From the IMG/VR virus record IMGVR_UViG_3300027986_000016, positions 1-44,069 of that record: a stretch of DNA of 44,069 nt; one strand, written 5' to 3'. Both the position numbers and the translations under genes were made by a program. Shown here piece after piece: positions 9,731 to 41,183 of the stretch. This DNA is from a virus (taxonomy: Duplodnaviria; Caudoviricetes). The notes under the pieces were generated by a model. It worked only from the letters and a program-made list of their open reading frames with translations, was not told the origin of the DNA and ran no database searches. Every line of letters begins with the position of its first letter. The first letter of the stretch is position 1.

Positions 9731-10540
9731 ATGGACGGTTTCCTGCAATATCTCGCTAAGTGCTTCGCGGCGGCAACGCTCGCTGTAGCGACCGCCTTCG
9801 CCATTGCCATCACGATCGTGGTCGCGGCTGGCGGCTGGAATGGATGGGGAAGCGTGTCGCACACGAGCACCACACACTTCGCAAGCAAATGGGCCAGTTC
9901 TAGCAAAGTCCAGGCTCGCTGCGGTCTACCTACCAGTAAAGAGTTCTCCGGTAAGGACGGCTACAGCCAACGGTTTCAGTCATGCTGGATGAGCGAGGGC
10001 GCGGTCCAGATTCACAGCTACGGATCGCCGGCGACCAGCACTCCTGTCCCTACAGCCACGGCGACATATGCCCCTCTCCCGACTGTTCCGCCTACCACGA
10101 CACCCTGGCCTACGGCGATGCCCTTACCAACCAATACTCAGGTCCCACAGACGCTGTCGAGTCAGATGGTAGCTGTAATCAACGAGACTCGCGCCAGCTA
10201 TGGCGTGCCGCCTCTCACTGAAAGCACCGCGCAGGATGCGTGCTCTGAAGTGCATTCAGAGCACATGTACCAGCAGCACGGCATCTCGCACGACGAGTTC
10301 CCGCAGGACGTCTGCATCGGTTGGAATAACGTCGGTGAAAACGTCGGGCAAGCTGGCCCAGGCGATCCGCTTCAGATGCTCGGACTGCTACATAGCGAGA
10401 TGATGAACGAACCGCACTCGGTAGGCTGCCAGGGCAACCACGCCTGCAACATCATCAGCCCGCTCTACAATAGAGTTGGCGTCGGTGTGTACGTCGCGCC
10501 AGACGGAACCGTTTGGCTAACAGAAGACTTTGCAGGGTAG
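9731..10540 (+). CDS. Membrane-anchored CAP (SCP/Tpx-1/PR-1) domain protein
   Basis: N-terminal hydrophobic helix; Pro/Thr linker; INETRASYGVPPL..HSEHM..ISH..GENVG..HACNIISPLYNRVGVGV..WLTEDF. Confidence 0.9.
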   Translation: MDGFLQYLAKCFAAATLAVATAFAIAITIVVAAGGWNGWGSVSHTSTTHFASKWASSSKVQARCGLPTSKEFSGKDGYSQRFQSCWMSEGAVQIHSYGSPATSTPVPTATATYAPLPTVPPTTTPWPTAMPLPTNTQVPQTLSSQMVAVINETRASYGVPPLTESTAQDACSEVHSEHMYQQHGISHDEFPQDVCIGWNNVGENVGQAGPGDPLQMLGLLHSEMMNEPHSVGCQGNHACNIISPLYNRVGVGVYVAPDGTVWLTEDFAG

Positions 10541-23074: not shown

Positions 23075-25332
23075 ACGCCGTACGCGCTGCGACCGTCGCC
23101 GCCATGACAGGTGGTGTTGCGGAGGGTAACGGGCGTATCCGCTCGGGTGCGTACGACGTTTCTCCGGTGGCGTTGATCGCGGATCACCAGTGGCGCACGC
23201 TCTTTCCGTACCTCAAGCCAACCAGTCGCGCGCAGGTGGTCGGGCAAGGCTCGGATATTCACTTCTTGTCGGTGACGTCCTACGCCTGCGACAACCCAAC
23301 CGGCGCGGACCTCGCGGTGATTACGCCTATATACACGCCGCAGCTTTACGACTCGTACGGGAACACCATCGACGGCTCGCCGTTTAACTCGGACGTGCAG
23401 AACCTGGACATAACTCCCGGCAACACCGCAGCTATCGGCGTTCACGGTCAGGGAGGTAAGCGTCTGCCATTCATCAACCAACTGGTTCCCGGTAGAGGCA
23501 TCAAGCCAACGCCATACGGTTTCTACGACTATAAAAAGCCGCCCGATAGCTCTATATACATCATGACCCCGCCGCAGGGTAAGAACGCTCCAGGGACGGT
23601 CTACAAAAACCCGAATGCGCTCGACAAGGTTGTGAACCGCCCATTGATCGACGTCTACCTTGGACGAGGACTGACGTACGATACCGAGGACACGACAGGC
23701 TTCACGCCGATCATGGTCAAGGCGGGGCGCGGCCTCGCGTTCTCCGCTCCCGATCCGAACGACAACGGGCAGCGTTTCCTCCAGGTCGATCCCGCAGGGA
23801 GCGGTATTCTCCAACTCGCCGCTGGCCCAGCTATCGCCATCGACCCGCCGACCCCGCCAACCATCGCCAGCGTGACGCCTGTTCAGACAGACGGCACTGG
23901 CGCGAACGATCTCGGCACGCACGAGTATGGAGCGACTTACACCACGACCGACAGTAAAGAGAGCATGATCTCTGCCGGCGTCCAGACGTTCAACTCACCA
24001 GGCTTCGAAGCTAACGCCGTCGTCATCAATGCCGTCCCAACGCCGCCGCAGATCATCAACGGGCTGAATCTCTATCGGACTAAGGTGGTTGACACGCAAA
24101 CGACTTTCTACAAGATCGCGTCCTTCACCAGAGCACAGATCATCGCAGGCATCTCGTACGACGACAATGTCGCGGACTCGGCTCTTGGCGCGGCGTATAC
24201 CGGATCGAATCCATCCCTGGTGAGCGTTGAGCTTGCGACCGTAGCTGGCGCGAACGTATCGGGCCTTGTTGAGAACGCTGGCGACGACACCAACGGACTG
24301 AAGGTAAACGTGGATGGCACGACCGTGACCATCAATAGTTCAAACCAGCTTGTCGCATCGGGCGGCAGTGGCGGCGGTGGCGGCGGCGCTTCCGTGGGCG
24401 AGGTTGCCAAAGTGGTGGCGACGCATCCGAACTATCTCGGCGCTGCCGTGATCCCAGCAGCCACGATCGCAGCCGGCACGAACCTCAACTGGAGCAACAA
24501 CCTCTACGATGCGACTTCGGGCCTCATGCACGATACCGTGACGCACAGTGATCGCTTCGTCGTGCGACAACTCGGCTGGTACAAGGTCACGTTCTGCGGG
24601 CAGTTTCAGAGCAAGTGCGGCCCTGTCTTCGACGCTGCTATCTACCTTAACGACAACTACCAGATAGCTCAGGACTCGCAGCAACTTGGCGGCGACGCTG
24701 ACTCCACGACCGTCTATCACTCCACTGAATGCATTGGCGTTTGCTACGCCAAGCCTGGTGACTACTTCACCGCCTATGTTCAGCAGACCGCGAATGTCTC
24801 CACAAGCTGCACGATCGAAACGGGCACAGAGGCGTCCGGTGGTGACTTCTTTACTGATGGCTGCATGTTCATGGTTGAGCAGCTACAGCCGCCAGCGTCA
24901 TCTTCCGCAAATGCGTTAGGCCATGCGGTCGCGGCGCGCAACAACTCATGGCCCATGCCGTCGAGCACACCTCAAGCGATCCCCTGGCCGACGAACATCG
25001 TGGACACCGATTCTTTCTGGACGCCTAGCAGCACCAAGCTCACCGTTCCGGTAAAGGGCATCTACCGATTCACCGCGTTCACCACCAGCGGTGGAGTGCT
25101 CTCTGGTGCGCCGTTCGAGTGGTATCTGAACATGCGCGTCAATGGGGCCGACCCCTGGACAGGAGGAGCTACGGTCTACGGTGGCGAAGTCTCGTCCGAG
25201 AATGTCAATGATCTCGCAATCTCCGGGTTGGTTGCTCTCAACGCGGGAGATTACGTCGAGTTTTATATGTGGTCAACGAATAGCTCTGCGCCTACAATGA
25301 TGGTGCAGGCCGCTCTAGAAGGCGTGGCGTAG
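23071..25332 (+). CDS. Minor tail/fibre protein with C-terminal C1q-like beta domains
   Basis: LKVNVDGTTVTINSSNQL fibre motif; Gly linker; TKLTVPVKGIYRF..LVALNAGDYVEFY C1q/TNF-like pattern, present twice. Confidence 0.75.
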   Translation: MNAVRAATVAAMTGGVAEGNGRIRSGAYDVSPVALIADHQWRTLFPYLKPTSRAQVVGQGSDIHFLSVTSYACDNPTGADLAVITPIYTPQLYDSYGNTIDGSPFNSDVQNLDITPGNTAAIGVHGQGGKRLPFINQLVPGRGIKPTPYGFYDYKKPPDSSIYIMTPPQGKNAPGTVYKNPNALDKVVNRPLIDVYLGRGLTYDTEDTTGFTPIMVKAGRGLAFSAPDPNDNGQRFLQVDPAGSGILQLAAGPAIAIDPPTPPTIASVTPVQTDGTGANDLGTHEYGATYTTTDSKESMISAGVQTFNSPGFEANAVVINAVPTPPQIINGLNLYRTKVVDTQTTFYKIASFTRAQIIAGISYDDNVADSALGAAYTGSNPSLVSVELATVAGANVSGLVENAGDDTNGLKVNVDGTTVTINSSNQLVASGGSGGGGGGASVGEVAKVVATHPNYLGAAVIPAATIAAGTNLNWSNNLYDATSGLMHDTVTHSDRFVVRQLGWYKVTFCGQFQSKCGPVFDAAIYLNDNYQIAQDSQQLGGDADSTTVYHSTECIGVCYAKPGDYFTAYVQQTANVSTSCTIETGTEASGGDFFTDGCMFMVEQLQPPASSSANALGHAVAARNNSWPMPSSTPQAIPWPTNIVDTDSFWTPSSTKLTVPVKGIYRFTAFTTSGGVLSGAPFEWYLNMRVNGADPWTGGATVYGGEVSSENVNDLAISGLVALNAGDYVEFYMWSTNSSAPTMMVQAALEGVA

Positions 25333-25343
25333 GAGGCGATGAC

Positions 25344-28064
25344 ATGACGGATATAGTTGGGTTTTCCAACAAGGGTCGCACTACGATTAACATGCCACCG
25401 AACGGTCTACCGTCCGGCTCGGGATCGCAGACCCTCACCGTCCAGAGCGCAGCAGTCTTGCCGCCTTCTGGTAAAGCCTTCGACATCATCATTGAGCAGG
25501 AGTACATAACGGTTCCTGCTGCCGTCAATACGGGCGGGCCAACGTACACCGGCGTCCTTCGGGGGCAGTACGGCACGAGTCCTGTCGCGCACGTTGACCA
25601 GACTCCGATCATCGAGGTTGTTACCGCCTACGAGCTAGGCCAGTTCGTGCAGTTCCCGCAAGCCAAGCTGACGATCGACCAGGATGTCTCGATCACCACA
25701 CCGAACAACGGCGATGTTCTCACCTACGACACCGCAACCTCGCTCTGGAAGAACAAACCAAGCGGATCAAACACTCTCTCGGGCGACACTGACGTCACGC
25801 TTACATCCCTCGCGAAAGGCGACATCCTCGTCTATGATAGTTCGATCTCGAAGTGGAAGAACTACGCCGCAGGCACCTCTGGCTACGCTCTGATATCCAA
25901 CGGGGCCGGTACTCTCCCGACCTGGCAGGCGATTGCGCAGGCGCTGTCTGGCCTCTCTGACGTCACGATCACGTCGATCGCGAAAGGCGACATTCTCGTC
26001 TATGACGCCGCACTGAGCAAGTGGAAGAACTACGCAGCCGGGACATCGGGCTACGCGCTCATCTCTAACGGACCCACAACGCTTCCCACCTGGCAGGCAA
26101 TTGCTACCTCGCTGGCGACCCTCACAGACGTGGTCGAGACATCGCTGGCGAACGGCGATATCCTCGTCTACGAAAGCGCCACCGGCAAGTGGAAGAACTA
26201 CGCAGACGGCACAGCGGGTCAGGTGCTCACTGCGAACGGCGCAGGGCAGAAGCCTACCTACCAAACGCAAGCCACGACGATGTACGCCTATTGGGACAAC
26301 ATCTCCGGGACGGGCGACAACGGAACGCTCTACGCATCATGGAGCACGATCTCTCCGGGCGCAGCCACCGGCGCTGACGGCAGTGGTCATATTCACATCG
26401 ACGGCACGCACTCCAGCCGAATCGACTTCGATGTGGCCGGCATCTACACCATCACGTGCGGCTTGCTGCCTGGCATTGGCGATAACACGACGACCAACTA
26501 CTTCAGGATGCTCAAGAACGGTGGCACGACGCTCGACATCCTAGACAGTTTCTTTAACTCGTCCACACAAACGTACAAGAGCCTTAGTTGGACCGGGCAC
26601 CTGAACGCCGGCGACTACATCGAGTTTTCGCTCTACATGGGCGGCACGGTGTCCATTAGCTACTCAGTGGGGTACATCGGCATCACCTCGATCACACTGA
26701 ACGGGCAGCTTGCGCCAGGAACGTACGCAGCACTGACCGACGTGGCGCTCTCGGGACTGCAAAACGGTCAGGTGCCGATGTACAACACTGGCACGTCAAA
26801 GTGGAACAACGCTAACGCCAGTCTGCCGCTGTCCACCGAACTGGCCTACTGGACGAAGTTGGCCGCTCTGCTAGAGCCCGACGCTATAGAGCCGGTACAG
26901 TACGGGACGTTTACCTATACCATCAGCGGCAGCGCAACCAAGTTTCTCCTAGCAGCTTGGGATGCGTCGATCGCGAGTAATGGTCGCTTCGAGCTTCGGG
27001 ACGTTCGCCAGCCAATACCGTTGAGAGGCGTGACCGTGAACGGACTTGCCTCTCAGGCTATCGCGGTGTTCTTGGACCCGACGAAGCCGACGTACGCGGA
27101 TGCCATGAGCACCTACTACTCGCGACTCGATCAGATTGCGACGAGCGCAACGAAGTATGTGTACATCTCCACGACATCCACGATTGTCCCGCTACTGCCG
27201 GGTCCGTACGGTTCGATCATTACCGGAGCAACCTGTTTCGACTTCGCGTGGATCATCCTGTCGCCATTCGGCCTCAACCTCTACGACGAGGTAGCCGACA
27301 CCACGACGCAGCGATTCGCTCATCAAATGAGGTTCCCAATCAACAAGAACTTCGCTGGCGGGTTGCAAAGCTCCTTCACAGGGGCGGCGGGCAATCTCGC
27401 CGGCGTGTCGTACATCATCCTCCCAAGCACGTGGTCCGCTGTCACCGATCCGCTGGCCCCATACAGCTTCCGCGACGACTTCATGGGCGCGACTCTCGAC
27501 ACGACGACCAAGTGGACGCGCGTCCAGAGCACTGCCGGCAACGTGGAGATCGACACCAATTTCCAGTGGCTAAACCTTGTTGGTAACAGCACGTGGGGAG
27601 CGAATGGGCTATACACGCAGTCGTCGTGGGCGCACTCTTCCGGGAAGAAGATGCTCGTAGACGTCTATGTGCCACAGGCAGCATCGCAAGGGACGAATCA
27701 GGTCATGGTGGGCTGGATGGACGCGCTTGGTGTCTCTTACACCAACTTCGCTCACGGCATCAACTTTGGCAACAACGGGTCCGGTGGGTCGCAGCTTCAA
27801 GCCTACGAGAACGGCACGGCGCGTGGCGCTGTCGGGAGCGGATTCACGCAGGGTGCCATCTATCGCTTGCGCTTCACTCTCGGAGCGTCCAGTTGTACCT
27901 ACGAGATTCAGGGCGGGCCAGAGTATCCTCCCATCGGCGGAACCTCCTGGACGAACATCACGCCAGGCACAAGTAGCTCTTCTACCACTCCGCTCCGCGC
28001 CGGCGCGTCGGTCGGAGCGGCTTCCACACCGAAAAGCTGGATCAGCGACGTCCGCGTGTACTAA
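25344..28064 (+). CDS. Tail fibre / receptor-binding protein
   Basis: DV-x-x-x-S-x-x-x-GD-x-LVYD..KWKN fibre repeats; C1q-like domain (LNAGDYIEF); C-terminal lectin-like beta domain (FRDDFMGATLDTTTKW..ISDVRVY). Confidence 0.85.
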   Translation: MTDIVGFSNKGRTTINMPPNGLPSGSGSQTLTVQSAAVLPPSGKAFDIIIEQEYITVPAAVNTGGPTYTGVLRGQYGTSPVAHVDQTPIIEVVTAYELGQFVQFPQAKLTIDQDVSITTPNNGDVLTYDTATSLWKNKPSGSNTLSGDTDVTLTSLAKGDILVYDSSISKWKNYAAGTSGYALISNGAGTLPTWQAIAQALSGLSDVTITSIAKGDILVYDAALSKWKNYAAGTSGYALISNGPTTLPTWQAIATSLATLTDVVETSLANGDILVYESATGKWKNYADGTAGQVLTANGAGQKPTYQTQATTMYAYWDNISGTGDNGTLYASWSTISPGAATGADGSGHIHIDGTHSSRIDFDVAGIYTITCGLLPGIGDNTTTNYFRMLKNGGTTLDILDSFFNSSTQTYKSLSWTGHLNAGDYIEFSLYMGGTVSISYSVGYIGITSITLNGQLAPGTYAALTDVALSGLQNGQVPMYNTGTSKWNNANASLPLSTELAYWTKLAALLEPDAIEPVQYGTFTYTISGSATKFLLAAWDASIASNGRFELRDVRQPIPLRGVTVNGLASQAIAVFLDPTKPTYADAMSTYYSRLDQIATSATKYVYISTTSTIVPLLPGPYGSIITGATCFDFAWIILSPFGLNLYDEVADTTTQRFAHQMRFPINKNFAGGLQSSFTGAAGNLAGVSYIILPSTWSAVTDPLAPYSFRDDFMGATLDTTTKWTRVQSTAGNVEIDTNFQWLNLVGNSTWGANGLYTQSSWAHSSGKKMLVDVYVPQAASQGTNQVMVGWMDALGVSYTNFAHGINFGNNGSGGSQLQAYENGTARGAVGSGFTQGAIYRLRFTLGASSCTYEIQGGPEYPPIGGTSWTNITPGTSSSSTTPLRAGASVGAASTPKSWISDVRVY
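25776..26270 (+). repeat. Three 168-bp (56-aa) tandem repeats in the tail fibre gene
   Basis: GCGAA(A/C)GGCGA(C/T)AT(C/T)CTCGTCTA at 25812, 25980 and 26148; AAGTGGAAGAACTACGC in each unit. Confidence 0.9.
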
Positions 28065-28111
28065 ATCCCCTGGTGTCCTGCTACCATAAGAGTAGGTAAA
28101 GGGGGTTTTCA

Positions 28112-28555
28112 ATGACTGAGCAGCAGACGTCAATCGCTCCATCGTCGGTGGTGCAGGGTATCGCAGACAGCCTCAACGAGCCACCGAAGTTGTCCGAACT
28201 GGACGCTCACCTCGGTTCGCTCCTCCGTGAAGTCACCCGCTTCAAGCAGGCGTTCACCGATCTGCTCGCGCACACCCGCAACATCGAGGGCGCGCTGTCC
28301 GAAGCTCGCGACCACCTCACCGGCAAGGACTCGCAGATCGCATCGCTCAAGGCACAGCTTGAGCGAGCAGTTCAGGACGTGACCAACAAGGACACGCTCC
28401 TTCACGACCTACAGTCCCAACTGGACACGCTCCGGGAAAACTACAACACGGTCGAGAACCACGCCGCCGAACTGGCGCGAGAACTGGCCGAAAAGACCGC
28501 AGAGATCGCAGGTGTTGTCGATGCTCCTAGCGCCCCTGCGCCGACCAACGGCTAG
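28112..28555 (+). CDS. Coiled-coil hypothetical protein
   Basis: 147 aa with heptad pattern; GGGGG RBS. Confidence 0.75.
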   Translation: MTEQQTSIAPSSVVQGIADSLNEPPKLSELDAHLGSLLREVTRFKQAFTDLLAHTRNIEGALSEARDHLTGKDSQIASLKAQLERAVQDVTNKDTLLHDLQSQLDTLRENYNTVENHAAELARELAEKTAEIAGVVDAPSAPAPTNG

Positions 28556-28576
28556 AGGCTACAGGAGTGACCCGCA

Positions 28577-28972
28577 ATGCCCCCGACCCATGTCGGCGCA
28601 AACGGCTACTCGAAGCTTGATGACCACGATCTACTCATCACGCTCAACACGCAGTTCGAGAGCTTCCTGGAGGCCCAGAAAGAGGAGAAGGCAGTCCGTG
28701 AGGCGATGCTGTCTCGGATTGCCGCTCTAGAGAAGGGGCACGACGCAGCGGCGCATCTCTTCGATGAGATCGTCGCCAAGCTGAACAAAGGGCTTGATGA
28801 ATCCGAGCGTGTCCGCGTCAGGACATGGATTCGCCAAGAAGACGACACCATCGAGGCCGAGAAGACGCGCGATGGGCAGTCGCCAATCGTGAGGTCCACG
28901 ATCGCCGGCGCGATAATCGGCGTCTTCGGGATTCTCGTTGTGGCACTGCTCCAGGCGCACGGTGTTCTGTAA
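28577..28972 (+). CDS. Coiled-coil protein with C-terminal TM helix (XhlA-like architecture, lysis-associated)
   Basis: DHDLLITLNTQ..RIAALEK..IAGAIIGVFGILVVALLQ; AGGAG RBS. Confidence 0.7.
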   Translation: MPPTHVGANGYSKLDDHDLLITLNTQFESFLEAQKEEKAVREAMLSRIAALEKGHDAAAHLFDEIVAKLNKGLDESERVRVRTWIRQEDDTIEAEKTRDGQSPIVRSTIAGAIIGVFGILVVALLQAHGVL

Positions 28973-29361
28973 TGGACGGCCAGCAGAAACCAACAGTCTT
29001 CATCCATGAGGATGACGAGGCACTTCTCGACGCGCTCTGTGACTCGCTGGAGATGTTAGGCTACCCGGTAGTCGGCACGTCGGGGATGCTACAGCCAAAC
29101 CGTTTGCGGTTCCGTGGGATGCCTGGCATCTTCATCATGGACCTGATGCTCATGAACGAGCCGTCCGGGATCGAGCTAACCAGGACGCTGAAGGAACGAG
29201 GCATGAAGTGTCCGGTGATCGCGATTACGGCATCGCCAATGATGGCCGAACAAGCTCGTGAGTCAGGGCTGTTCGCAGACGTTCTAAACAAGCCTGACGG
29301 CGTACTTGCGCTCCATCTCGTCTCGGCAATTGACAAGGCACTCGCGCCCCAGGAGGGCTGA
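28972..29361 (+). CDS. Stand-alone CheY-like response-regulator receiver
   Basis: VFIHEDDE (acidic pocket), IFIMDLML (phospho-acceptor Asp), SGIEL, PVIAITAS (Thr), LNKP (Lys). ATG overlaps the upstream TAA. Confidence 0.9.
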   Translation: MDGQQKPTVFIHEDDEALLDALCDSLEMLGYPVVGTSGMLQPNRLRFRGMPGIFIMDLMLMNEPSGIELTRTLKERGMKCPVIAITASPMMAEQARESGLFADVLNKPDGVLALHLVSAIDKALAPQEG

Positions 29362-29365
29362 CACC

Positions 29366-29524
29366 ATGCGGCATCTCTTCGATCATCTGCGCTGCCTCAT
29401 CGGATTCCATCCCGTCGATCTGTACGTCACTGAGCGTCACAACGCCCACTGGTGGTACACTGCCTGCCGCGTCTGCGGCAAGGGGTCGCCATTCGCGAAT
29501 GAGTACGAAAAGGGCAGCAAATGA
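29366..29524 (+). CDS. Small Zn-finger protein (DUF1660-like C-x4-H..CxxC)
   Basis: LRCLIGFHP..CRVCGK; AGGAGG RBS; ATGA overlap with the next gene. Confidence 0.7.
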   Translation: MRHLFDHLRCLIGFHPVDLYVTERHNAHWWYTACRVCGKGSPFANEYEKGSK

Positions 29525-30555
29525 AAATCATTTCTGCCTTAATCGCCCTCGCTGTGCTGTTCTCTTCGTGCGTGTTTGCACGCCTGTCGCAGAGCGTCAC
29601 ACTTGCGGCAAAACCCGTCCGCATCCTCCACGTGGCGGCGGGCACCGACCTGAAGTCACTCCAATGGGACCATGCCTTCATCTTCCTGCCGACCGCATGG
29701 CAGTACGCACCGAATCAGGGGGAGGGTGCTGTCGCCTGCGACGTGGATAGCGGGATAGACCCAAGCGTCACGGATACAACCGCCGCTGTCATCGACTCGA
29801 TCAATACCACCGACCAGACATCTCCTGATACGTGGCAGGACGACGTGGGTCACGGCACGTTTACCGCGAGCCAAATAGCCGGCAACGGGTCAGTGCTCGA
29901 CGCGGTCGCGCCGAAAGCCAGTCTCATCATCGTGAAGTCTCTAGGGCCAAAAGGCGGCGACTTTCTCTCTATCTCAGCCGGTATCATCTACTGCATCACG
30001 CACGGCGCTGACGTTGTGAACATGAGCTTCGGGGGGTCCGATCTAAGCGAGCACTCAGCGTTTCAATCGCTCGTGGACCTCGGCTGTCAAAACGGCGTGG
30101 ACTTCACCATCGCCGCAGGAAACTCGGGTGGGCAGAATCGAAACGATCCGGCGTCGGTCCAGTCGCCGTGCGCCATCACCGTGAACGCCATTAGCCCGGA
30201 CGGCTTCGTGGCGAAGTTCTCAGACTACGGGCAGACGCCAAACACGGTGAGTGCTCCGGGCGTCGGAATCGTCGGTCATTGGGGATCGCAGATTGGCATG
30301 GGCGACGGAACGTCGTTCGGCGCACCACTCGTCGCCGGCACCATCGCCCTACTCAGAGCGCAGGGCGCAAGCGCGACTCAGGCGGTAGCTGAGATTCTAA
30401 AGACCGCATCGCCGCCCTTAGACAAAACGATTCGCGGTAAGGCGTATGCGAAACTGCGTAGGCTCCTATACGGCCACGGCTACCTCGACGCCGGCGCGGC
30501 GCTCAGGGATTGGGCGCTACAAACCAAGCGACACTCGAACCTGGAGGCACTATGA
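29521..30555 (+). CDS. Exported subtilisin-like serine protease (S8)
   Basis: Signal-like N-terminus MKIISALIALAVLFSSC; triad DVDSGID, GHGTFTAS, GTSFGAP; oxyanion AAGN; VVNMSFG; YGHGYLDA. Confidence 0.95.
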   Translation: MKIISALIALAVLFSSCVFARLSQSVTLAAKPVRILHVAAGTDLKSLQWDHAFIFLPTAWQYAPNQGEGAVACDVDSGIDPSVTDTTAAVIDSINTTDQTSPDTWQDDVGHGTFTASQIAGNGSVLDAVAPKASLIIVKSLGPKGGDFLSISAGIIYCITHGADVVNMSFGGSDLSEHSAFQSLVDLGCQNGVDFTIAAGNSGGQNRNDPASVQSPCAITVNAISPDGFVAKFSDYGQTPNTVSAPGVGIVGHWGSQIGMGDGTSFGAPLVAGTIALLRAQGASATQAVAEILKTASPPLDKTIRGKAYAKLRRLLYGHGYLDAGAALRDWALQTKRHSNLEAL

Positions 30556-31712
30556 AACGGCTCTACGACTTTCTAGCACCGTGGCGACCTGGCGGACTAC
30601 AGGGGCGTCACTACCACGGTGTTATCACCATCGCGATCGTCGCTGTCTTGATCTTCATACTCGGTGCGGGGATCGGCGGGACAGTCACGTACAAGATCGC
30701 GAGCGACCGTCAGGGCGGTTTCATCAAGAAGCATCTGCCGCCCCCTGTGCGGGTCATGCGTGGTGCGCTGCCGTCGTCGTACAACCTGTTCCGCTTTGTC
30801 ATTCGCATCCATCAGCAGGACGGCTCAAACTCGTGCGTGGCTCAGACCGGCTCCGAGATCGAAGAGATCACGCTTGCCGAACAGGGCATCCACATTCCAA
30901 TGAGCGCCGGCTACATCTACAACCAGTACAAGTATCAGAACCTCGATGACGGCATGACCTACCCCGCCCTTGGGTACGCACTCACACAGGACGGCGACGC
31001 GCCTCTCTCGGTCTTCGGCTACGACGGCGTAGGCGATGTCTGGGCACAGCCGGGGCCACTGGCGAGACAGGTCGCGGCGCGCTACCGCATGAAAAGCTGG
31101 TTCTCGATCGGTACAACGGACATCGGCACGATGGAGTACGAGCTAGCTCACGGCCACCCGTTCGGCGTGGCGCTACACATATACGCTTCGTTCCTCGCGC
31201 AGCTAAACAGCGGCCAGACCGTATACGTGTCAGGTCAGGGCGGCGCGGGCGACTACTTTGTCTTCGATCACTCGATGACAGCAGTCGGCTACGACTCCAG
31301 CGGCCTGTGGCTCCTCAACCACTACGGCCCTCCGGGATACGTCCACATAACCTGGGACTTCCTAGCTGCCTGGAATAACGGCGACTCGATCGGATTCGTG
31401 CCGAACATGCAGCCGAAGCCACCGCTCATGTCGAAGGTCAACCAGCGCATCTGGAATCAGTACCGCGCCGAGCACCACAAGCCCTTAATTAGCTTCAAAA
31501 AGGGGTCTAGCTTGACTCCTGCCGCCCGGTATTGGGTCAAGCACACACCGGCCCACACAGGGGGCATTTTGAAGGCAGAGCAGTGGTTCCCGCGCGGGCG
31601 TCACGGACTCAAGGGCTTCGAGGAAGACTTCTACCAGGGCTACGACTTAATCTACTGGCCGCGCTTCAAGGGCGAGCCTCACAAGTGGTTACTCCACCGA
31701 TGGGCGCGCTAG
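30552..31712 (+). CDS. Membrane-anchored papain-like (C1) cysteine protease with C-terminal LGFP-like domain
   Basis: TM VITIAIVAVLIFILGAGIGG; LPSSYNL; QQDGSNSCVAQ (Gln/Cys); SAGYIY; DHSMTAVGYD (His); LLNHYG (Asn). GGAGG RBS; ATGA overlap. Confidence 0.88.
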   Translation: MKRLYDFLAPWRPGGLQGRHYHGVITIAIVAVLIFILGAGIGGTVTYKIASDRQGGFIKKHLPPPVRVMRGALPSSYNLFRFVIRIHQQDGSNSCVAQTGSEIEEITLAEQGIHIPMSAGYIYNQYKYQNLDDGMTYPALGYALTQDGDAPLSVFGYDGVGDVWAQPGPLARQVAARYRMKSWFSIGTTDIGTMEYELAHGHPFGVALHIYASFLAQLNSGQTVYVSGQGGAGDYFVFDHSMTAVGYDSSGLWLLNHYGPPGYVHITWDFLAAWNNGDSIGFVPNMQPKPPLMSKVNQRIWNQYRAEHHKPLISFKKGSSLTPAARYWVKHTPAHTGGILKAEQWFPRGRHGLKGFEEDFYQGYDLIYWPRFKGEPHKWLLHRWAR

Positions 31713-32026
31713 ACCAACCACCGCTGACGGGCGAACTGTTCCATGAAGTCGGCGTGCTCTCGCAGACTGAGGCTGACCTGACGGCAGAGAACAGATCGCT
31801 TACCGCGCGAGTCGCAGCACTTGAAGCACGAGCCGCTATCTCTGCCGATGCGGCAAGCTGGGCCGAGAAGCACGCCGAGAACGCGAAGGACGCTCAGGGG
31901 ATGCTTGTCGAGTTGCGCCACGCGCTGCTCATGAGTTGCGCGACTGGCGCTGCCGGCGTTACGATTGGCGCAGCCCTTGGCCCTCTGGTGTCGCATCTCT
32001 TCGCAAGGGCGTTCGGGGTAATATAA
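31700..32026 (+). CDS. Coiled-coil protein with C-terminal TM helix
   Basis: LTARVAALEAR..ATGAAGVTIGAALGPLVSHLF; overlaps the end of the C1 gene. Confidence 0.65.
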   Translation: MGALDQPPLTGELFHEVGVLSQTEADLTAENRSLTARVAALEARAAISADAASWAEKHAENAKDAQGMLVELRHALLMSCATGAAGVTIGAALGPLVSHLFARAFGVI

Positions 32027-32073
32027 GAGCCCCGACGCAGCCTGGGGGCAGGACTACGAAAGAGGCTCGCTCT

Positions 32074-32328
32074 ATGATAATCGACACGCGACGTGGCTGT
32101 ATCGACTGCGGCCACGGCCCGATCGTGACTATGGTGTGCGACACATGCTGCCAGAGGCGGGTTCAGCGAGACGGTGAGCACTGGTTCAAGACGCTGTGCG
32201 CCGACTTCGACATCAAGCATCCCGGTCTTGCGGCAGAAAAAGAGCGCAAGGCCCGGCAGCGAACCACCAGGGCCAAGCGCGAAGCAGTTATCGGATGGAA
32301 CAACGAAGTGCTGAGAGAGGCGAGCTAG
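32074..32328 (+). CDS. Cys-rich hypothetical protein
   Basis: CIDCGH..CDTCC; GAGG RBS; stop overlaps the convergent gene stop (CTAG). Confidence 0.55.
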   Translation: MIIDTRRGCIDCGHGPIVTMVCDTCCQRRVQRDGEHWFKTLCADFDIKHPGLAAEKERKARQRTTRAKREAVIGWNNEVLREAS

Positions 32329-32588
32329 TCCCGCACGGTGATCGTCCTAGTCTCGCCGTTCTTCAGTTCAACGACGACCGTGCCGGTGTGCGGGTTGATG
32401 TTTAGCCGCTGAAGATCGCTCGGGTTGATGTTGTTCGTCCGCAGGAAGTCGTTGACACGTTTACCCGAAACGATGGCTGTGGTCGGTCGTCCGCGATGTC
32501 GTCCGATCGCGATGATCGCGGCACGAAGGTCGGCGGTCAGGTTAGGCTCTTCGATCACGAGCGTCTTATCAGAACTGCGAGTCAGCAT
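32325..32588 (-). CDS. Hypothetical protein
   Basis: AGGAG RBS; last gene of the leftward early operon. Confidence 0.7.
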   Translation of the reverse strand: MLTRSSDKTLVIEEPNLTADLRAAIIAIGRHRGRPTTAIVSGKRVNDFLRTNNINPSDLQRLNINPHTGTVVVELKNGETRTITVRD

Positions 32589-32754
32589 GTAGTATCTCCT
32601 GGTTGACGGGAGGGTGACAGATTACACAGAGCACGGCGTCGTCCGTGTGCTTCCAGAGCCACACGTGCTCGTTGATGTAGCAAACGGGATGTCCTTTGTG
32701 GGCGACGTAAGGCGTACCGTCATCCGCGACTCTGGCGTCAGTCTCGTCGCCCAT
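32569..32754 (-). CDS. Small Cys/His protein
   Basis: CYINEHVW..CVICHP; overlaps neighbouring genes. Confidence 0.55.
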   Translation of the reverse strand: MGDETDARVADDGTPYVAHKGHPVCYINEHVWLWKHTDDAVLCVICHPPVNQEILHADSQF

Positions 32755-32908
32755 CGGTATCACTCGGAAGCTCTTTGCGCCCACCACACTGGTTGCACTT
32801 CAGGTACTGCTTGAAGCACACGCCGTCGATGCTCACCAACCTCACAAGAGACGCAGGATGGCCGCAGCCTGAGCACCTTGGTCGTTTGTCGTTCGGCTTG
32901 CCGATCAT
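32738..32908 (-). CDS. Small Zn-ribbon protein
   Basis: CSGCG..CNQCG; GGAG RBS; ATGA overlap. Confidence 0.6.
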   Translation of the reverse strand: MIGKPNDKRPRCSGCGHPASLVRLVSIDGVCFKQYLKCNQCGGRKELPSDTDGRRD

Positions 32909-33111
32909 GCTGCGCACTCCATCGGGACCTTCCAGGACAGCGTTCGGCAGCGGCTCCAACCTAGAGCCACGTAGGCCCAATGCAGGATGTTGTGCTGGGC
33001 TACGACCGGGTTGCTAGCCCGGACACAGCCAGTGACACGCTCTTGCGTGTCTTCGTTGAAGACCTGTACCTCAAACTCCATCTCGAACGAAGTCGTCACG
33101 TTGTTGTCCAT
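32905..33111 (-). CDS. Hypothetical protein
   Basis: 68 aa; tiles the operon. Confidence 0.6.
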   Translation of the reverse strand: MDNNVTTSFEMEFEVQVFNEDTQERVTGCVRASNPVVAQHNILHWAYVALGWSRCRTLSWKVPMECAA

Positions 33112-33380
33112 TCTGCGAGCGTCGGAACAACAAAGGCCATCTTCGGGCCAACGAATTGCCTGAGACTTTCCAGGCGCATCTTGGGCGGGTCCGTCTCCCG
33201 CAGAACCAGGACACGGTTCCGGCCCGTAGGCTTGTAGCCCACGCTGGTGACTTCAGCGACGGCCTGCCGCTTTGCCTCGTGCTCGGTGTCGGACGGCAGT
33301 TTCAAGCCGTAGCACACGACGTACTCAGGCGTGTCGTGGCCTTTCAGTTCGATCTCTACCACGTAGGTGTTCGTTGCCAT
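33096..33380 (-). CDS. Hypothetical protein
   Basis: GGGAG RBS; 94 aa. Confidence 0.65.
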   Translation of the reverse strand: MATNTYVVEIELKGHDTPEYVVCYGLKLPSDTEHEAKRQAVAEVTSVGYKPTGRNRVLVLRETDPPKMRLESLRQFVGPKMAFVVPTLAEWTTT

Positions 33381-33381
33381 C

Positions 33382-33960
33382 TCACACTCCCTCCCATGCC
33401 GGTAGGTTATCGGCAGGAACTATGCCATCGGGAATCTGCTTGCTCATGCGTCCCATCCAGAAGAGATGAATCTCGTGATTCTTGCTCTGGATGTTGATGT
33501 GCGGGCAGCCGTAGTAGTGGACGTGCTTCATCGTCACGACGCGGCGAGTGACGATGCGCCGTGTCTGCACCTTGCTATCCAACCACTGCCCTAGCATGTA
33601 GACTCTGCGCCTGACGCGAAAGTTGAGCGTGTTCACCCTCCATGTTCTCGTGTGACCGGAACGAGCAAAAAGCCAGTCGCGCGCAGCCATGAGAAGCCCG
33701 TCGCGGACTGGCCTGAGCGGGACTGTCACCCATGTCTCCTGCTTGTTTTCGACCTCGTACGGTCCCTCGTCGCTCCTGGCCGCGATGACCTTGGCTCTGA
33801 TCTCCATGATCGACGCCATCATCGCGTGGTCGTACATCATCTCGACTTCAGGGGCGATAGCTAGATCGTAGTCGGTGAGTATCTTTCGCGCGGCGAACGT
33901 GAGGTGTTCGAGCGTAAGCTGACCCGTCTTGGTCGCGGACAAGTCTATCGGCTCCATCAT
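33382..33960 (-). CDS. Hypothetical protein
   Basis: GGAGG RBS; 192 aa; ATGA overlap. Confidence 0.7.
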   Translation of the reverse strand: MMEPIDLSATKTGQLTLEHLTFAARKILTDYDLAIAPEVEMMYDHAMMASIMEIRAKVIAARSDEGPYEVENKQETWVTVPLRPVRDGLLMAARDWLFARSGHTRTWRVNTLNFRVRRRVYMLGQWLDSKVQTRRIVTRRVVTMKHVHYYGCPHINIQSKNHEIHLFWMGRMSKQIPDGIVPADNLPAWEGV

Positions 33961-34163
33961 CGCCTCCAGTGGTCTTTGTAGGGCAAAGTAGTTTTTGTTG
34001 GAAGGATGATCGCCATGCGTCCTGCGCAGTTATCCTTGCGCCGGCGTGCATGGCAGCCGTTGCATAGACCGGCTTTGAAGTGAGCGCCAATCATCGTTCG
34101 GCATTGGGTCTGCGACCCGTCCGCGTTCTTTTTCATGCCGAGGCACCGTACTTGCTGGGTCAC
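33957..34163 (-). CDS. Small Cys-rich protein
   Basis: C..C..CNGC; tiles the operon. Confidence 0.55.
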   Translation of the reverse strand: MTQQVRCLGMKKNADGSQTQCRTMIGAHFKAGLCNGCHARRRKDNCAGRMAIILPTKTTLPYKDHWRR

Positions 34164-34447
34164 TACATGCTCCTTTGACGGTGGGTCGCTGCGTAAGCTT
34201 CTCGCAGCTTTATGTGCGTGTTTGTCGCTTCAGTGCGTTTCCTGTCGAGTAGCTCGATGCCTTCCAGGACAAGCCGCTGGGTTGTGTCGGGTAGCGCAGC
34301 GAAGCACTCAAGGCAGAGCGAGAGGTTTGCGTGCCATCCCACCAGGACGAAGCCTTCTGGGGCGGAGTAATTGCAGCCGTCGCAATCTAGGAAGTGTCGC
34401 TCGTACTTAAGCGTTAACTGGCTGACCCGACCCTCAGAGTCGTCCAC
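34163..34447 (-). CDS. Small Zn-finger protein
   Basis: CDGC..LCLECF. Confidence 0.6.
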   Translation of the reverse strand: MDDSEGRVSQLTLKYERHFLDCDGCNYSAPEGFVLVGWHANLSLCLECFAALPDTTQRLVLEGIELLDRKRTEATNTHIKLREAYAATHRQRSM

Positions 34448-34448
34448 G

Positions 34449-34640
34449 CTATGCCGCCTTTCTCTGGCGCTTCTCTTTGGTCGTCATCCTATGCCAAATT
34501 GATTGGTCGTAGGCACTCTTGCGCCCACCGCTGGCATAGGCTCGTCGTTCGCGGCGGTTCATCGCGACGCCCTTGCTCTTCGCTTCAGCCCGCGCAATCG
34601 CCTCTTCGATCTCTTTCTCGGAGGGGCCGTTGTCTTTCAT
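34449..34640 (-). CDS. Hypothetical basic protein
   Basis: MNRRERRA motif common in small phage proteins; ATGA overlap. Confidence 0.6.
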   Translation of the reverse strand: MKDNGPSEKEIEEAIARAEAKSKGVAMNRRERRAYASGGRKSAYDQSIWHRMTTKEKRQRKAA

Positions 34641-34840
34641 GACGGGTACTCGAATTTCCGCAAGCGACCGCCGTCCTTACCACAGGTGATACACACCTTA
34701 CGGTTCTCGCTCTGGTATACATCCAAGCCGAACACAACGCCGTCTTGGATGTACACCAGGACAGGCTCCCACTCGTGGAAGCCACGCAAGAGGCACACGG
34801 CCCCGCTGCGCGCCAGTAGTCTCTCGATCGTCCGCATCAT
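34637..34840 (-). CDS. Small Zn-finger protein (DUF1660-like)
   Basis: CLLRGFHEW..CITCGK; ATGA overlaps. Confidence 0.65.
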   Translation of the reverse strand: MMRTIERLLARSGAVCLLRGFHEWEPVLVYIQDGVVFGLDVYQSENRKVCITCGKDGGRLRKFEYPS

Positions 34841-34995
34841 CTCTCTCGCCCCTTGTACGGCACCACGCCGATGAAGTGCTTGCAATCGCGGCAGAGCACG
34901 ATCTGACCGCCGAACGATATACCGTGACAGTCAGGCACATGCCCGCCACGAAGACGGCACCTGAGCTTGTTGAATAGCTGTCGCACGATGCTCAC
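34837..34995 (-). CDS. 52-aa Zn-finger protein (not in the ORF track)
   Basis: MSIVRQLFNKLRCRLRGGHVP..CRDCKH; GTGA and ATGA overlaps with both neighbours. Confidence 0.65.
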   Translation of the reverse strand: MSIVRQLFNKLRCRLRGGHVPDCHGISFGGQIVLCRDCKHFIGVVPYKGRER

Positions 34996-35279
34996 GGCAC
35001 GACTTCCTTGTCCACACCGCCGACATTGACGGACATTCCGCCGTATCCGCTGCGATAGTCGTTGCCGTTGAGAAGGTGCCCGCTGGCGTTGCCGAAAGCG
35101 TGCGTGTGGCGAACGCGCGACCCGAGAGCCTTGAGCGCGTCCTTCACGGCGGCAATGTCGCTTCGGTCCTGACTGGTGGTCACCTCCTGATACAGAACAG
35201 GCGCATCGTCCACTGCCTCATTGAATTGATGCAGCGAGATTGGGTCGTTGTGTGTTCCTACGATGATCTGGTAGCTCAT
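34992..35279 (-). CDS. Hypothetical protein
   Basis: AAGGA RBS; 95 aa. Confidence 0.65.
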   Translation of the reverse strand: MSYQIIVGTHNDPISLHQFNEAVDDAPVLYQEVTTSQDRSDIAAVKDALKALGSRVRHTHAFGNASGHLLNGNDYRSGYGGMSVNVGGVDKEVVP

Positions 35280-35291
35280 GGCGTGTCCTTT

Positions 35292-35663
35292 CTAGAATGT
35301 GTCTTCGTCGGACCAGTCGCCCGACGCTGCGTCTGGTTTGTCCTGCTTAGAGCCGAGGAACCTGAGCGTTTGGGCGGTGATCCGAATTGCTGCCCGCGTC
35401 TCGCCGGTGCGCTTGTCCTGCCAGGTCCGTAGCTCTAAGTCGCCGCGTATGAACACCTGCCGGCCTTTGGCAAGGTAAGCGTTGGCGGTTTCAGCGAGCT
35501 TGTCCCAGCACTGTACCTCGAACCACTTGACCGTGTCATCATCTTTCCGGTTGCTATTCACAGCGACCGAGAAGTTGGTGACAGCCTTGCCGTTAGGCGT
35601 GTAGCGCATCTCGGGATCGCGCCCGAGGTTGCCGATGATTTCTGCTTCTGCGAGACTGCTCAT
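35292..35663 (-). CDS. ssb: Single-stranded DNA-binding protein
   Basis: IIGNLGRDPEMRYTPNGKAVTNFSVAVN..LAKGRQVFIRGDL; acidic tail DEDTF; AGGAG RBS before ATG 35663. Confidence 0.96.
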   Translation of the reverse strand: MSSLAEAEIIGNLGRDPEMRYTPNGKAVTNFSVAVNSNRKDDDTVKWFEVQCWDKLAETANAYLAKGRQVFIRGDLELRTWQDKRTGETRAAIRITAQTLRFLGSKQDKPDAASGDWSDEDTF

Positions 35664-35671
35664 GTGCTCTC

Positions 35672-35914
35672 CTATGCTGCGATGCTGATGATTCGTGAGG
35701 CGTTGTCGGCTTCGTCCTGGACGTGCAGCTTGGCCGCGTCGAGGATCAACTGCCCGACACGCATCTCGAACATGAGCGCGACGTCGGACTGCCAGTTCGG
35801 ATTGTTGCGAGTGTGCTCGACGGCGTCGTAGTAGACCGGCCACTCCACGGTCACATGACTGTCCCCGTCTTCGACGTGAACGGTCATCGCCTCTGTATCG
35901 ACGGTCATCTTCAT
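35672..35914 (-). CDS. Hypothetical protein
   Basis: 80 aa MKMTVDTEA..; ATGA overlap with the holin stop. Confidence 0.6.
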   Translation of the reverse strand: MKMTVDTEAMTVHVEDGDSHVTVEWPVYYDAVEHTRNNPNWQSDVALMFEMRVGQLILDAAKLHVQDEADNASRIISIAA

Positions 35915-36288
35915 TGGGTTGGCCCCGTCGTGGTCGGTGGAGTTGGCGTCGGATCGAGCGTTCGCGTACCTGCCGGCGTCACGGTCGGATCGGTCTTGGT
36001 CGGCTTGATGCCCTTGATGAGCGTCGGAATGTCCACGCCGCCTGATGCGGTTGTCGCCGCAGCGTAGAGGCCGGATGCGGAGAGTCCGAGCGAGATGCCA
36101 AACACGATGCCGTTCGGCCAGTTCGTCGCGAACGACGACTGGTAGTAGTACAGGCCGGCGAGGATGCCAAACAGGATGCTCACGAGCGGAGCGATACGGT
36201 TCGGGACGCCAATCTGCTTCGCGACCTGGACGAGCCCGATGATGGTCGGGACGCCGACTGCGAGGGTTGTCACTGACGTGTCGATCAT
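35911..36288 (-). CDS. Holin (A118/superfamily V-like, three TM segments)
   Basis: IIGLVQVAKQIGVPNRIAPLVSILFGILAG..GISLGLSASGLY signature; Pro/Thr-rich tail. Confidence 0.85.
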   Translation of the reverse strand: MIDTSVTTLAVGVPTIIGLVQVAKQIGVPNRIAPLVSILFGILAGLYYYQSSFATNWPNGIVFGISLGLSASGLYAAATTASGGVDIPTLIKGIKPTKTDPTVTPAGTRTLDPTPTPPTTTGPTQ

Positions 36289-36293
36289 GCTGC

Positions 36294-36611
36294 TTACCTT
36301 TCGATAATCGGTCGGTAGAGGCGCTCCAAGGCTTCAACAGCGACCACAGCGACCGCCGCGACCTGGAGCAGTTCTTCGATTAGGTGATGGAAATGCTTGG
36401 CCGCTGCTCTGCTGTCGTCGTCAAACAGAACGCGCAGACTTTCCTGGGATGCTTCGCCAAACTCTTCTCCGAGAATGGCGAGCCAGACGATTGGGTCGTG
36501 GTCCTGCTGGCCCCATTTGTCATCCTGACGAGCGCGCTCGTTTGCCACCCGCTGAAGGACGTTAGCCGTCGCTACCGGGTCAAGCAGCGCGAGTTGATCG
36601 GTCTGAATCAT
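36294..36611 (-). CDS. MazG-like nucleotide pyrophosphohydrolase
   Basis: ERARQDDKWG..WLAILGEEFGEA..EELLQVAAVA (EExxE..ExxQ). Confidence 0.85.
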   Translation of the reverse strand: MIQTDQLALLDPVATANVLQRVANERARQDDKWGQQDHDPIVWLAILGEEFGEASQESLRVLFDDDSRAAAKHFHHLIEELLQVAAVAVVAVEALERLYRPIIER

Positions 36612-37230
36612 GCCTGAATCTCCTGACTCGTAGGTCTTCCACTGCGTAGCGTTTGAAGTACCAGACTCCGAGCACGCGACGGCCAGGGAGTTTCCCTTCC
36701 GCTGCCCACGCTGTCACCGTGCGGTTGGCCCACCCGAGTATGCGGGCGGCTTGCGGCACAGTGACCCAGGAGTCTGGCATGGCCTCGATGAGCGTCTGCC
36801 GATGATTTACGCCTCCCTTCTGCATCGGCGGAAACGTCTTGACTGAAAAGAGCATCGGGTACTCGGTCAGAAACTCGTCCACCGATGCTGTTGGTATGCG
36901 GTATCGCGCCTCGGGGTTGTCTCTCTGGGCGGCGTTGTCGAGCACCGGACAGCGATCCACGTCCTTGAACATGCCTGATAGGACCCAACGCCAAAGAGTT
37001 CGTCGTGGCACTCCAAGGATCGCCGCCAGTTCGGTGGTTGTATACGAGTAGCCGTTGAACGTCGCCGCCGCGCCCTGTAGCCCGAGCGTTCTGATGCGGG
37101 CGCGGATAGCCTTGATCGTTCGCCCAGGTAGAAACTTGGTGTAATTCTCGTGGTTTAGCTGGTGAACGTTCTCGACCAGGGTCAGGTCTTCGTCCCGCGA
37201 CCACGGCTCTTTCTTAGCTGGCTTGCGCAT
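36580..37230 (-). CDS. DNA-binding protein: Myb/SANT-like N-terminus plus two MerR/excisionase-type HTH domains
   Basis: WSRDEDLTL..GRTIKAIRAR; YTTTELAAILGVPRRTLWRWV; VTVPQAARILG..TVTAWAAEGKLPG..WYF. Confidence 0.8.
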   Translation of the reverse strand: MRKPAKKEPWSRDEDLTLVENVHQLNHENYTKFLPGRTIKAIRARIRTLGLQGAAATFNGYSYTTTELAAILGVPRRTLWRWVLSGMFKDVDRCPVLDNAAQRDNPEARYRIPTASVDEFLTEYPMLFSVKTFPPMQKGGVNHRQTLIEAMPDSWVTVPQAARILGWANRTVTAWAAEGKLPGRRVLGVWYFKRYAVEDLRVRRFRHDSDRSTRAA

Positions 37231-38575: not shown

Positions 38576-39371
38576 TGAGTAGCTCCCGCTGCGCGGTGTT
38601 GTCTGAGTGATACCGCGCCAGGTCATCGGGCGTCAGCTTGATCGTGTCGCCACGCGATTTCTTGTGGCCGTCGCGCAGGGACCAACCTCGTTCGTGATGC
38701 ATCCGCATCTGGTTCATCCAGCCCGCGACGACGTCAGTATGCGGCTTCAGGCCACGCTGAAACTCACGCCACTGTTCCGCGACCTTGATCTGCCAGGCGA
38801 CGTAGCTGAGCGCCACGTCGTACGGGTCTTGTTTCGGGTACTTCTCGATCGTGCGCTCGATGCGCTTCAGGTCATTGGGAAGTGCAGGGCTGTCACCCTT
38901 GAGCGTAGCGTAGACCCGCATTACTTCGTCACCAGCGGGCGTCACTGACAGCGTCGTTGGCGTCGGTGGCTCAAGGGAAAGCTGTTCCTGCTGGCGCAGC
39001 ATCCGCAAACGTTCTCGGTCATACGTCCTTTTCTTTTCGATAGCTTCGTCCGCGCCACCGTAGAGCTTCCACTCGTGAACGTATACGTCGCCGTTCGGCC
39101 ACTCGTCCATCCACTCGCAGTGGATCAGCGCCCGCCAGAGCAAGTCCGGTTCTCCGGTCCAAAACAGGGCCTTAGCCAGCTTTTCCCGGTCAATCGTGAC
39201 CTTGCCCTCTAGTGGGCTGTGGCGGGCTGCCCAATGCCACAGGAGATGGATGATCCCCAGGGCTTCGGGTCGGCGCACGCCCAGCCAGTCACACAGGTCC
39301 ATCAGCTTGGGATGCTGCGCGAGGTCGCAGTGCGACCGGATTGACGGAGTCTGCGATCGAGCCACGATCAA
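38562..39371 (-). CDS. Phage replication initiator (N-terminal wHTH)
   Basis: HPKLMDLCDWLGV..ALGIIHLLWHWA..VHEW..KKRTYDRERLR pattern; directly upstream of dnaB. Confidence 0.75.
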   Translation of the reverse strand: MIVARSQTPSIRSHCDLAQHPKLMDLCDWLGVRRPEALGIIHLLWHWAARHSPLEGKVTIDREKLAKALFWTGEPDLLWRALIHCEWMDEWPNGDVYVHEWKLYGGADEAIEKKRTYDRERLRMLRQQEQLSLEPPTPTTLSVTPAGDEVMRVYATLKGDSPALPNDLKRIERTIEKYPKQDPYDVALSYVAWQIKVAEQWREFQRGLKPHTDVVAGWMNQMRMHHERGWSLRDGHKKSRGDTIKLTPDDLARYHSDNTAQRELLNAAH

Positions 39372-40762: not shown

Positions 40763-40767
40763 TCCTC

Positions 40768-41112: not shown

Positions 41113-41137
41113 AGGCCGGAACTAGCGGCCTGCTCTC

Positions 41138-41166: not shown

Positions 41167-41183
41167 GACCGAAAATTTGGGGG

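Follow-up and report, generated by a model that had tools for sequence, protein, structure and literature searches.

Lysis by a holin together with an exported enzyme is established for systems such as P1 Lyz and phage 21 R, and the signal-anchor-release (SAR) endolysins are defined by an uncleaved, weakly hydrophobic, Gly/Ala-rich N-terminal transmembrane (TM) segment. Papain-like Cys-His chemistry on wall peptides is also used by viruses, in the CHAP, NlpC/P60 and Amidase_5 hydrolases (PMC10318531) and in the C39-like PeiR. Subtilases of family S8 are encoded by Bacillus and Moorella phages (Kirov, the Tyroviruses and MTATph1) as stand-alone proteins of ~290-340 aa. In this study, we analysed a 44,069-nucleotide stretch of a tailed phage (IMG/VR record IMGVR_UViG_3300027986_000016, positions 1 to 44,069; hereafter the window), in which a block of six genes behind the tail genes (28577-32026) encodes both an S8 subtilase (29521..30555, plus strand) and a C1A cysteine peptidase (30552..31712, plus strand). 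An earlier note on this DNA had proposed that the two proteases replace an endolysin and breach the protein wall of a Chloroflexota host that lacks peptidoglycan. Our findings suggested, by a modest preponderance of the evidence, that the C1A peptidase (C1) serves as a lysin with a signal anchor, timed by the holin and directed at the wall of a host that makes peptidoglycan, and that S8 is an accessory to it.

The C1A peptidase and its family

The packing of the six genes and the intact catalytic sets of both proteases were confirmed. The C1 protein, a xylellain-type C1A cysteine peptidase and candidate lysin, is composed of a TM segment (residues 23-41), a catalytic domain (~60-285) with the papain-type set Q89/C95/H240/N256, a Pro linker and a basic, aromatic C-terminal domain (~291-386). 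A search of the full library with C1 returned 183 proteins at E <= 0.001 and 29 at 1e-10; about 26 proteins constitute a family with an N-terminal TM segment, and the same C-terminal domain is present in most of them. Q89, C95, H240 and N256 stand in the papain order and were invariant in all 26 rows of the family alignment, which excludes P0146, P0150 and P0260 of the first alignment. PF00112 was matched by 20 of the 29 members of that first alignment and not by the window C1 itself, a word-index search with the window protein found only itself, and a single-protein viral scan with it found nothing. The alignment-based structure model reached a pLDDT of 84.8 (a single-sequence model, at only 37, was left unused). 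Xylellain (3OIS) was the top match by profile (E 6.5e-14), by Foldseek and by VIA (Z 27.0, rmsd 2.4, 235 residues aligned), and the papain-like wall hydrolases of viruses ranked below it (PeiR, PDB 8Z4H, Z 14.8, rmsd 2.5, 144 aligned).

An N-terminal TM segment was present in 24 of the 27 C1 members checked (hydropathy 1.75-3.1); one more reached 1.66, and two were N-terminally truncated. In the window C1, the segment has 32% Gly+Ala and a hydropathy of 2.82, with four Lys/Arg residues ahead of it. The C-terminal domain is rich in Lys, Arg and His and in aromatic residues, and it also ends P0150 and P0260, whose N-terminal domain differs, in the modular fashion of lysins. The exported N-terminal domain of P0150 and P0260 had looked like M23 by eye, but the label found no support in Pfam, PHROGs, NCBIfam or PDB and is not used here. 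An LGFP repeat (PF08310) was considered for the C-terminal domain of C1 and rejected, as the window gave 0 Pfam matches to it even at E 10 and two further Pfam scans also returned none. The Atlas pointed only weakly from this domain to Chloroflexota clusters (0.77-0.79, the 0.77 cluster being 13% LGFP), and the match lists of the structure searches, occupied by the catalytic domain, had little bearing on its fold.

Holin linkage and the place of the peptidase in related elements

A holin-family membrane protein is encoded in the window at 35911..36288 on the minus strand (phrog_1299 holin, E 1.3e-18). The earlier note had seen no lysis hydrolase in the window, which agrees with the absence of Pfam peptidoglycan-hydrolase families from its 154 open reading frames (ORFs; 63 + 91 scanned), and had overlooked this holin. 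The gene is located inside the replication block, flanked by ssb and by a hypothetical gene that looks MazG-like by eye. Searching with the C1 family alignment yielded seven viral loci (five at family level, two weak) and five genome loci, and an alignment of the holin added two family loci. In 11 of the resulting 12 family loci (L108-L112, L115, L117-L119, L170 and L171), a homologue of the holin lies 0.5-1.4 kb upstream of C1; in the twelfth (L116, genome G052), the upstream DNA is absent from the record. L170 and L171 were retrieved by the holin alone, and both carry C1.

Among 47 holin loci, the C1 family is present at every one of the seven nearest to the window holin; five of these had come up in the C1 search and two were new. 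From the remaining 40, three near-duplicates and one locus without a candidate ORF were dropped, and 59 of 107 candidate ORFs were scanned with Pfam; a recognised peptidoglycan hydrolase was found at 21 of these 36 loci, a weak match at one, a binding domain only at six, and none at eight. The holin family thus normally adjoins endolysins, and in the C1 clade the C1 peptidase occupies that place. Pfam found no wall hydrolase among 89 ORFs of the C1-bearing clusters and their flanks. L113 and L176 have distant phage C1-type domains fused to PG_binding_1, and in L176 the gene adjoins the holin family of the window. In L113, a 3D-like gene follows the C1-PG_binding_1 gene (by eye, with a shared weak phrog_6631 match).

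A siphophage-like region in G048 is related to the window phage, with tail-tip proteins 26% and 34% identical. Behind its tail genes stand, in order, a tail-anchored coiled coil, a small enzyme-like ORF, C1, a CAP protein, two membrane proteins and a strand switch; this C1 has the same C-terminal domain as that of the window, and S8 is absent. Because of the holin linkage in relatives and the post-tail position in this siphophage, C1 most likely occupies the slot of the lysis enzyme, and the post-tail block of the window is likely the phage's lysis module. The earlier proposal is supported to that extent. The small enzyme-like ORF of G048 resembled a permuted papain-like amidase by eye, a candidate that no family confirmed. 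At a truncated 146-aa gene (L162 ~6,000-6,300), the siphophage-like region of G048 meets a compact cluster, and the junction reflects either one element inserted into another or a chimeric assembly.

The compact particle-gene clusters that carry holin and C1 (G053:C3 ~503,000-517,200, with L117, L156 and L157; G051, G054 and G055, with L115, L118 and L119; L108, L112, L170 and L171) were observed inside chromosomes of one Chloroflexota class. They contain a portal, a protease-capsid fusion, a GDSL-like protein, the holin, C1, and adaptor-like and tail-like genes, with a terminase in G055. The G053 cluster has host genes on both flanks, no integrase or replication gene was seen in it, and its copy carries frameshifts. 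They are candidate gene transfer agents or, alternatively, candidate prophages that became domesticated. The position of C1 between structural genes there would also suit a virion-maturation protease or a virion-bound protease for entry; this role is very improbable given the N-terminal TM segment in nearly all members checked and the head-maturation proteases that the phage and the clusters already possess.

If C1 is the lysin, it would be produced late, keep its N-terminal anchor uncleaved on export and remain waiting at the membrane's outer face. The holin would set the time of lysis by opening holes in the membrane or depolarising it, which would release or activate C1 as with signal-anchored endolysins. 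Binding to the wall would fall to the basic, aromatic C-terminal domain, and envelope peptide bonds would be cut at the Cys95/His240/Asn256 site, most likely those of peptidoglycan peptides and possibly those of wall-linked protein. S8, the receiver, the Zn finger and the tail-anchored proteins of the block would be variable passengers that may help to clear outer protein layers. A wider version of this proposal is rather doubtful as a whole. In it, a C1A peptidase whose wall-binding domain is hitherto undescribed would be the dedicated lysin for the tailed phages and compact, gene-transfer-agent-like clusters of an uncultured Chloroflexota class. The envelope that it cuts would be an unusual one, with atypical peptidoglycan peptides or a layer of wall-linked protein, and the lipoprotein-like S8 would break the outer S-layer here as a monoderm counterpart of spanins.

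Several observations weigh against C1 as the lysin. The nearest solved structures of C1 are general proteases rather than wall hydrolases, and the literature searched held no C1A peptidase shown to cut peptidoglycan. The strongly hydrophobic TM segment is as compatible with a permanent anchor as with a releasable one. The C-terminal domain had no Pfam match, and a search for further fusion partners of it brought none that were new, only the six known members, which is a weak negative. In the window, the holin lies 3.9 kb from C1, and the late genes are on the other strand. All the holin-linked loci come from a single family of related clusters that includes the duplicates L108/L109 and L112/L118, so they are not independent and the linkage in 11 of 12 loci may reflect one event; moreover, C1 sits among virion genes in these compact clusters. 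The host was assigned by homology, with no spacer or prophage match. An ordinary endolysin could be encoded in the ~18 kb beyond the sequence covered, and an exported 3D-domain protein encoded just past the window, judged by its predicted fold, could be the actual peptidoglycan cutter. Since Pfam failed on that 3D gene, the lack of a Pfam hydrolase is itself a weak negative.

The subtilase, the host and the rest of the genome

The S8 subtilase (PF00082, E 6e-31) has an intact D76/H111/S265 triad with the oxyanion residue N201, as aligned to subtilisin BPN' and thermitase. It carries an N-terminal signal and lacks a long propeptide. The signal ends at Cys17, in what we take to be a lipobox-like site, and the protein is possibly a lipoprotein. 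Its closest relatives are 31-40% identical (best viral 34%), and no close cellular source was found in the inferred host class, where the best match was 32%. S8 was found at none of the 12 family C1 loci, at none of the 47 holin loci, and in none of the 45 capsid-related records checked (from 64 loci, with six records near complete, all distant relatives). Conversely, this C1 family stood beside S8 in none of the 80 best-scoring loci among 304 viral S8 loci. The proposed conserved pairing of the two proteases was thus not supported. The 64 capsid-related loci, at 35-54%, proved too distant as a comparison set; their 12 long records share no tail or cassette genes with the window and have no C1.

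Phage S8 genes are found elsewhere in other surroundings. In an annotated phage collection, they occur in 59 records, 52 of which are Bacillus phages, and the two cultured-phage genes inspected lie in nucleotide or replication modules, outside the lysis modules. The Tyroviruses have an ordinary amidase and holin in addition to S8 (PMC9703825). S8 is likely a variable, swappable accessory that is not conserved beside C1. A distant papain-like gene lies within ~0.6 kb of S8 in three of the best 80 of the 304 viral loci (two non-redundant), which belong to another phage group; this is the single result that speaks for the proposed pairing. In these (L220:3596-7370, L221 and L233:2994-6713), a compact cassette comprises a small protein, S8, membrane or exported proteins, the papain-like protein and a small membrane protein.

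The host is most likely a Chloroflexota bacterium, as the earlier note had supposed, and, to judge from the genomes that carry the C1 family, probably one that synthesises peptidoglycan. Two members of the C1 family are annotated as Chloroflexota C1 peptidases, and the five genomes with strong family matches all fall in one class of 21 genomes, one record bearing a Proteobacteria title. Of the 401 Chloroflexota genomes sampled, none but these five matched C1 better than E 1e-50; three others reached 1e-35 to 1e-41, and the two of those inspected (G059 and G060) encode secreted C1 proteins in an ordinary chromosomal context, outside the family in a quick tree. The DNA of the window ssb matches nine of the 21 class genomes at 70-89%, and the window holin matches six. 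No spacer-like match was found between window positions 24070-44069 and the 21 class genomes, DnaB had no genome match, and ssb gave no host signal against plasmids. At curated cut-offs, the five C1-bearing genomes have mraY in five of five, murE in four of five and a penicillin-binding protein (PBP) transglycosylase in five of five; without G052, the counts are 4/4, 3/4 and 4/4. A murG-like gene below its curated cut-off is present in 19 of the 21 class genomes and adjoins mraY in the five. The claim of a host lacking peptidoglycan was not borne out. PMC10284905 describes membrane, peptidoglycan and S-layer in Tepidiforma and places a loss of peptidoglycan within Dehalococcoidia. As the host class has peptidoglycan genes and Tepidiforma pairs peptidoglycan with an S-layer, an outer protein layer is possible and a wall without peptidoglycan is unlikely.

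The exit originally envisaged, in which S8 and C1 jointly breach the protein wall of a host with little or no peptidoglycan, accordingly became improbable. S8 and C1 are both intact, predicted to be exported and translationally coupled in the lysis slot, the pairing of S8 with a papain-like gene recurs in the three cassettes of the other phage group, and peptidoglycan has been lost in part of Dehalococcoidia (PMC10284905). These points are outweighed by the peptidoglycan genes of the inferred host class, by the 3D-fold protein that the phage encodes, by the absence of S8 from the C1, holin and capsid-related loci, by the cultured-phage S8 genes inspected, which stand outside lysis modules, and by the Tyroviruses, which carry an ordinary amidase and holin as well as S8.

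The window represents ~61% of the phage genome by completeness estimate, 44 of ~72 kb, and neither a terminase nor a portal was found in it. A 72,082-base contig also carries both proteases. Another contig of 72,051 bases (L065) is 100% identical to window positions 34,212-44,069 over the 9,858 shared bases compared and adds 10 kb past the window end; because its end falls inside the window, a circular genome of ~72 kb is indicated. The sequence covered is thus the window and 10 kb of L065, with ~18 kb of the ~72-kb genome outside it. Pfam found no lysin among 53 ORFs of L065, a negative to be read with those ~18 kb and with a gene of L065 that was recognised as 3D by fold. That gene, on the minus strand ~0.45 kb past the window end (L065:8963-9553), would encode an exported 3D-domain (MltA-like) protein of 196 aa, in which a signal peptide is followed by a proline linker and, at the C terminus, a 3D-fold domain (Atlas 0.94; TM 0.80 to PF06725). 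It had no Pfam match, and its neighbours are nucleotide-metabolism genes and not the holin. With this gene present and part of the genome outside the scans, the view that the genome is devoid of wall hydrolases is not supported.

The 3D gene raises the possibility of a layered lysis, in which the 3D protein or an endolysin elsewhere cuts peptidoglycan, and C1, with S8 here, strips an outer protein layer, S-layer or sheath. We consider this tentative, although it is the strongest of the competing explanations. It draws on the structural match of the 3D gene, on the co-occurrence of peptidoglycan and S-layer in some Chloroflexota (PMC10284905), on the S-layer-associated C1 peptidase Cwp84 among the structural matches of C1 (Z 18.6), and on the second enzyme-like ORF near C1 in G048, whose amidase label was given by eye and is unconfirmed. 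Many general proteases, however, rank above Cwp84, the 3D gene lies amid nucleotide-metabolism genes away from the holin, and the C1-holin clusters, including that of G053 with its host flanks, contain neither a 3D homologue nor a Pfam hydrolase.

The tail fibres are followed by a 147-aa soluble coiled-coil protein (28112..28555, plus strand; generic coiled-coil matches only), so the block is post-tail as described but not directly adjacent to the last fibre. The block opens, on the plus strand throughout, with a 131-aa coiled coil (28577..28972) that has a C-terminal TM segment of hydropathy 2.5, at residue 107, and belongs to no family in Pfam or NCBIfam, presumably XhlA-like in architecture by eye and with no family match of that kind. 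It continues with a single-domain response-regulator receiver (28972..29361; PF00072, E 4e-10, with E13/D14/D15, D57, T86 and K107 present) and a 52-aa Cys/His protein, probably a Zn finger (29366..29524; C10/H15/C34/C37; no Pfam match at E 0.1, PHROG ~0.1 or worse). After S8 and C1, a 108-aa coiled coil with a weak C-terminal hydrophobic tail (31700..32026; 1.68; no family match) is the last gene before the strand switch; it showed no similarity to the XhlA-like protein of a related cluster (E 1.2). The junctions are, in order, TAATG, a 4-nt gap, ATGA, ATGA and a 13-nt overlap. No homologue of the receiver, Zn finger or tail-anchored genes was found at any related locus examined.

Such a composition would also suit morons, that is, exported proteases plus a receiver that would alter the surface or the signalling of the host, as in superinfection exclusion, with the lysis genes in the other 18 kb. 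Neither the receiver nor the Zn finger is a lysis gene, homologues in related loci are lacking for five of the six cassette genes, class genomes G059 and G060 have secreted C1 proteins in ordinary chromosomal context, and the window holin is located elsewhere. Nevertheless, this explanation remains unlikely, as the family C1 stays linked to a holin or to the post-tail position in two kinds of element and the cellular C1 proteins fall outside the family in a quick tree. The GC content across the block is even (58-62%), and the plus strand between the block and the tail genes has no terminator-like site; these points also speak against morons, the terminator result only weakly, with promoter and terminator scans at chance level.

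Some further features were noted in the sequence. An exported CAP-domain protein is encoded in the tail operon (9731..10540, plus strand; PF00188, E 1.9e-7) and is 31% identical over 280 aa to L162:12463-13272, the gene directly after C1 in siphophage G048; a segment of it (W...CGxP...E...QRF) resembles a surface-binding repeat by eye. The tail protein at 20609-23074 (plus strand) has an insertion of ~380 aa with internal repeats relative to its G048 homologue, which is possibly a receptor-binding module; a viral scan with this protein as single query gave no match. An HNH endonuclease gene (620-1291, minus strand) overlaps the 5' part of the head-protease ORF, and the true start of the protease is therefore probably downstream of 889. 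Window positions 41570-44069 and L065 1-8715 carry dATP/dGTP diphosphohydrolase-like, NT5C/HAD and metallophosphoesterase genes, followed by a Dam methylase, a radical SAM protein, DUF2997 and an AAA ATPase, with possible roles in nucleotide modification or counter-defence.

Comparison with described lysis systems

If C1 acts as proposed, the true papain family (C1A) would join the catalytic domains of phage lysis, and the enzyme with its binding domain would be a testable tool to probe the poorly known envelopes of uncultured Chloroflexota. The C1 case would also illustrate why lysins in phages of this kind escape domain scans. Exit through a protein wall by two proteases, which is the stronger claim, has lost most of its basis. 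Our literature search, in which subscription journals were mostly not covered, found no characterised C1/papain-family phage lysin, no lysis case for a Chloroflexota phage and no phage subtilisin acting on an S-layer; the lysin of PMC12285257 is an amidase-SLH protein and not papain-type.

Among the known proteins, 3D/Sps transglycosylases such as B. subtilis YuiC and prophage YorM (PMC4499186) share a signal peptide and the predicted 3D fold with the protein of L065:8963-9553, and the same source describes the YuiC 3D domain as a minimal active MltA-type transglycosylase. By eye, T91, Y93, D151 and the catalytic D162 of YuiC correspond to T114, Y116, D157 and D170; the first Asp is, however, out of register, with AVG for AVD, and the Pfam 3D family is not matched. 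The S8 proteins of the Kirov, Tyrovirus and MTATph1 type are ~30% identical to the window S8, but both genes inspected belong to nucleotide or replication modules, whereas the window S8 has a signal or lipobox-like site and stands in a post-tail block.

C1 itself has the fold and the Q/C/H/N site of xylellain from Xylella fastidiosa (MEROPS C1A) at 18-20% identity, and differs from it in being phage-encoded, with an N-terminal TM segment, an extra basic C-terminal domain and holin-linked relatives. CHAP, NlpC/P60, Amidase_5 and PeiR belong to other families, and the window C1 is far closer to true C1A. The SAR and secreted endolysin systems share with this locus, as predicted, a holin-family gene, an N-terminally anchored exported enzyme and a place at the end of the late operon, and they differ from it in using a glycosidase or amidase in place of a C1A catalytic domain and in the strand of the holin. 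Overall, the phage probably follows a holin-endolysin scheme of lysis in which the C1A peptidase serves as the lysin.

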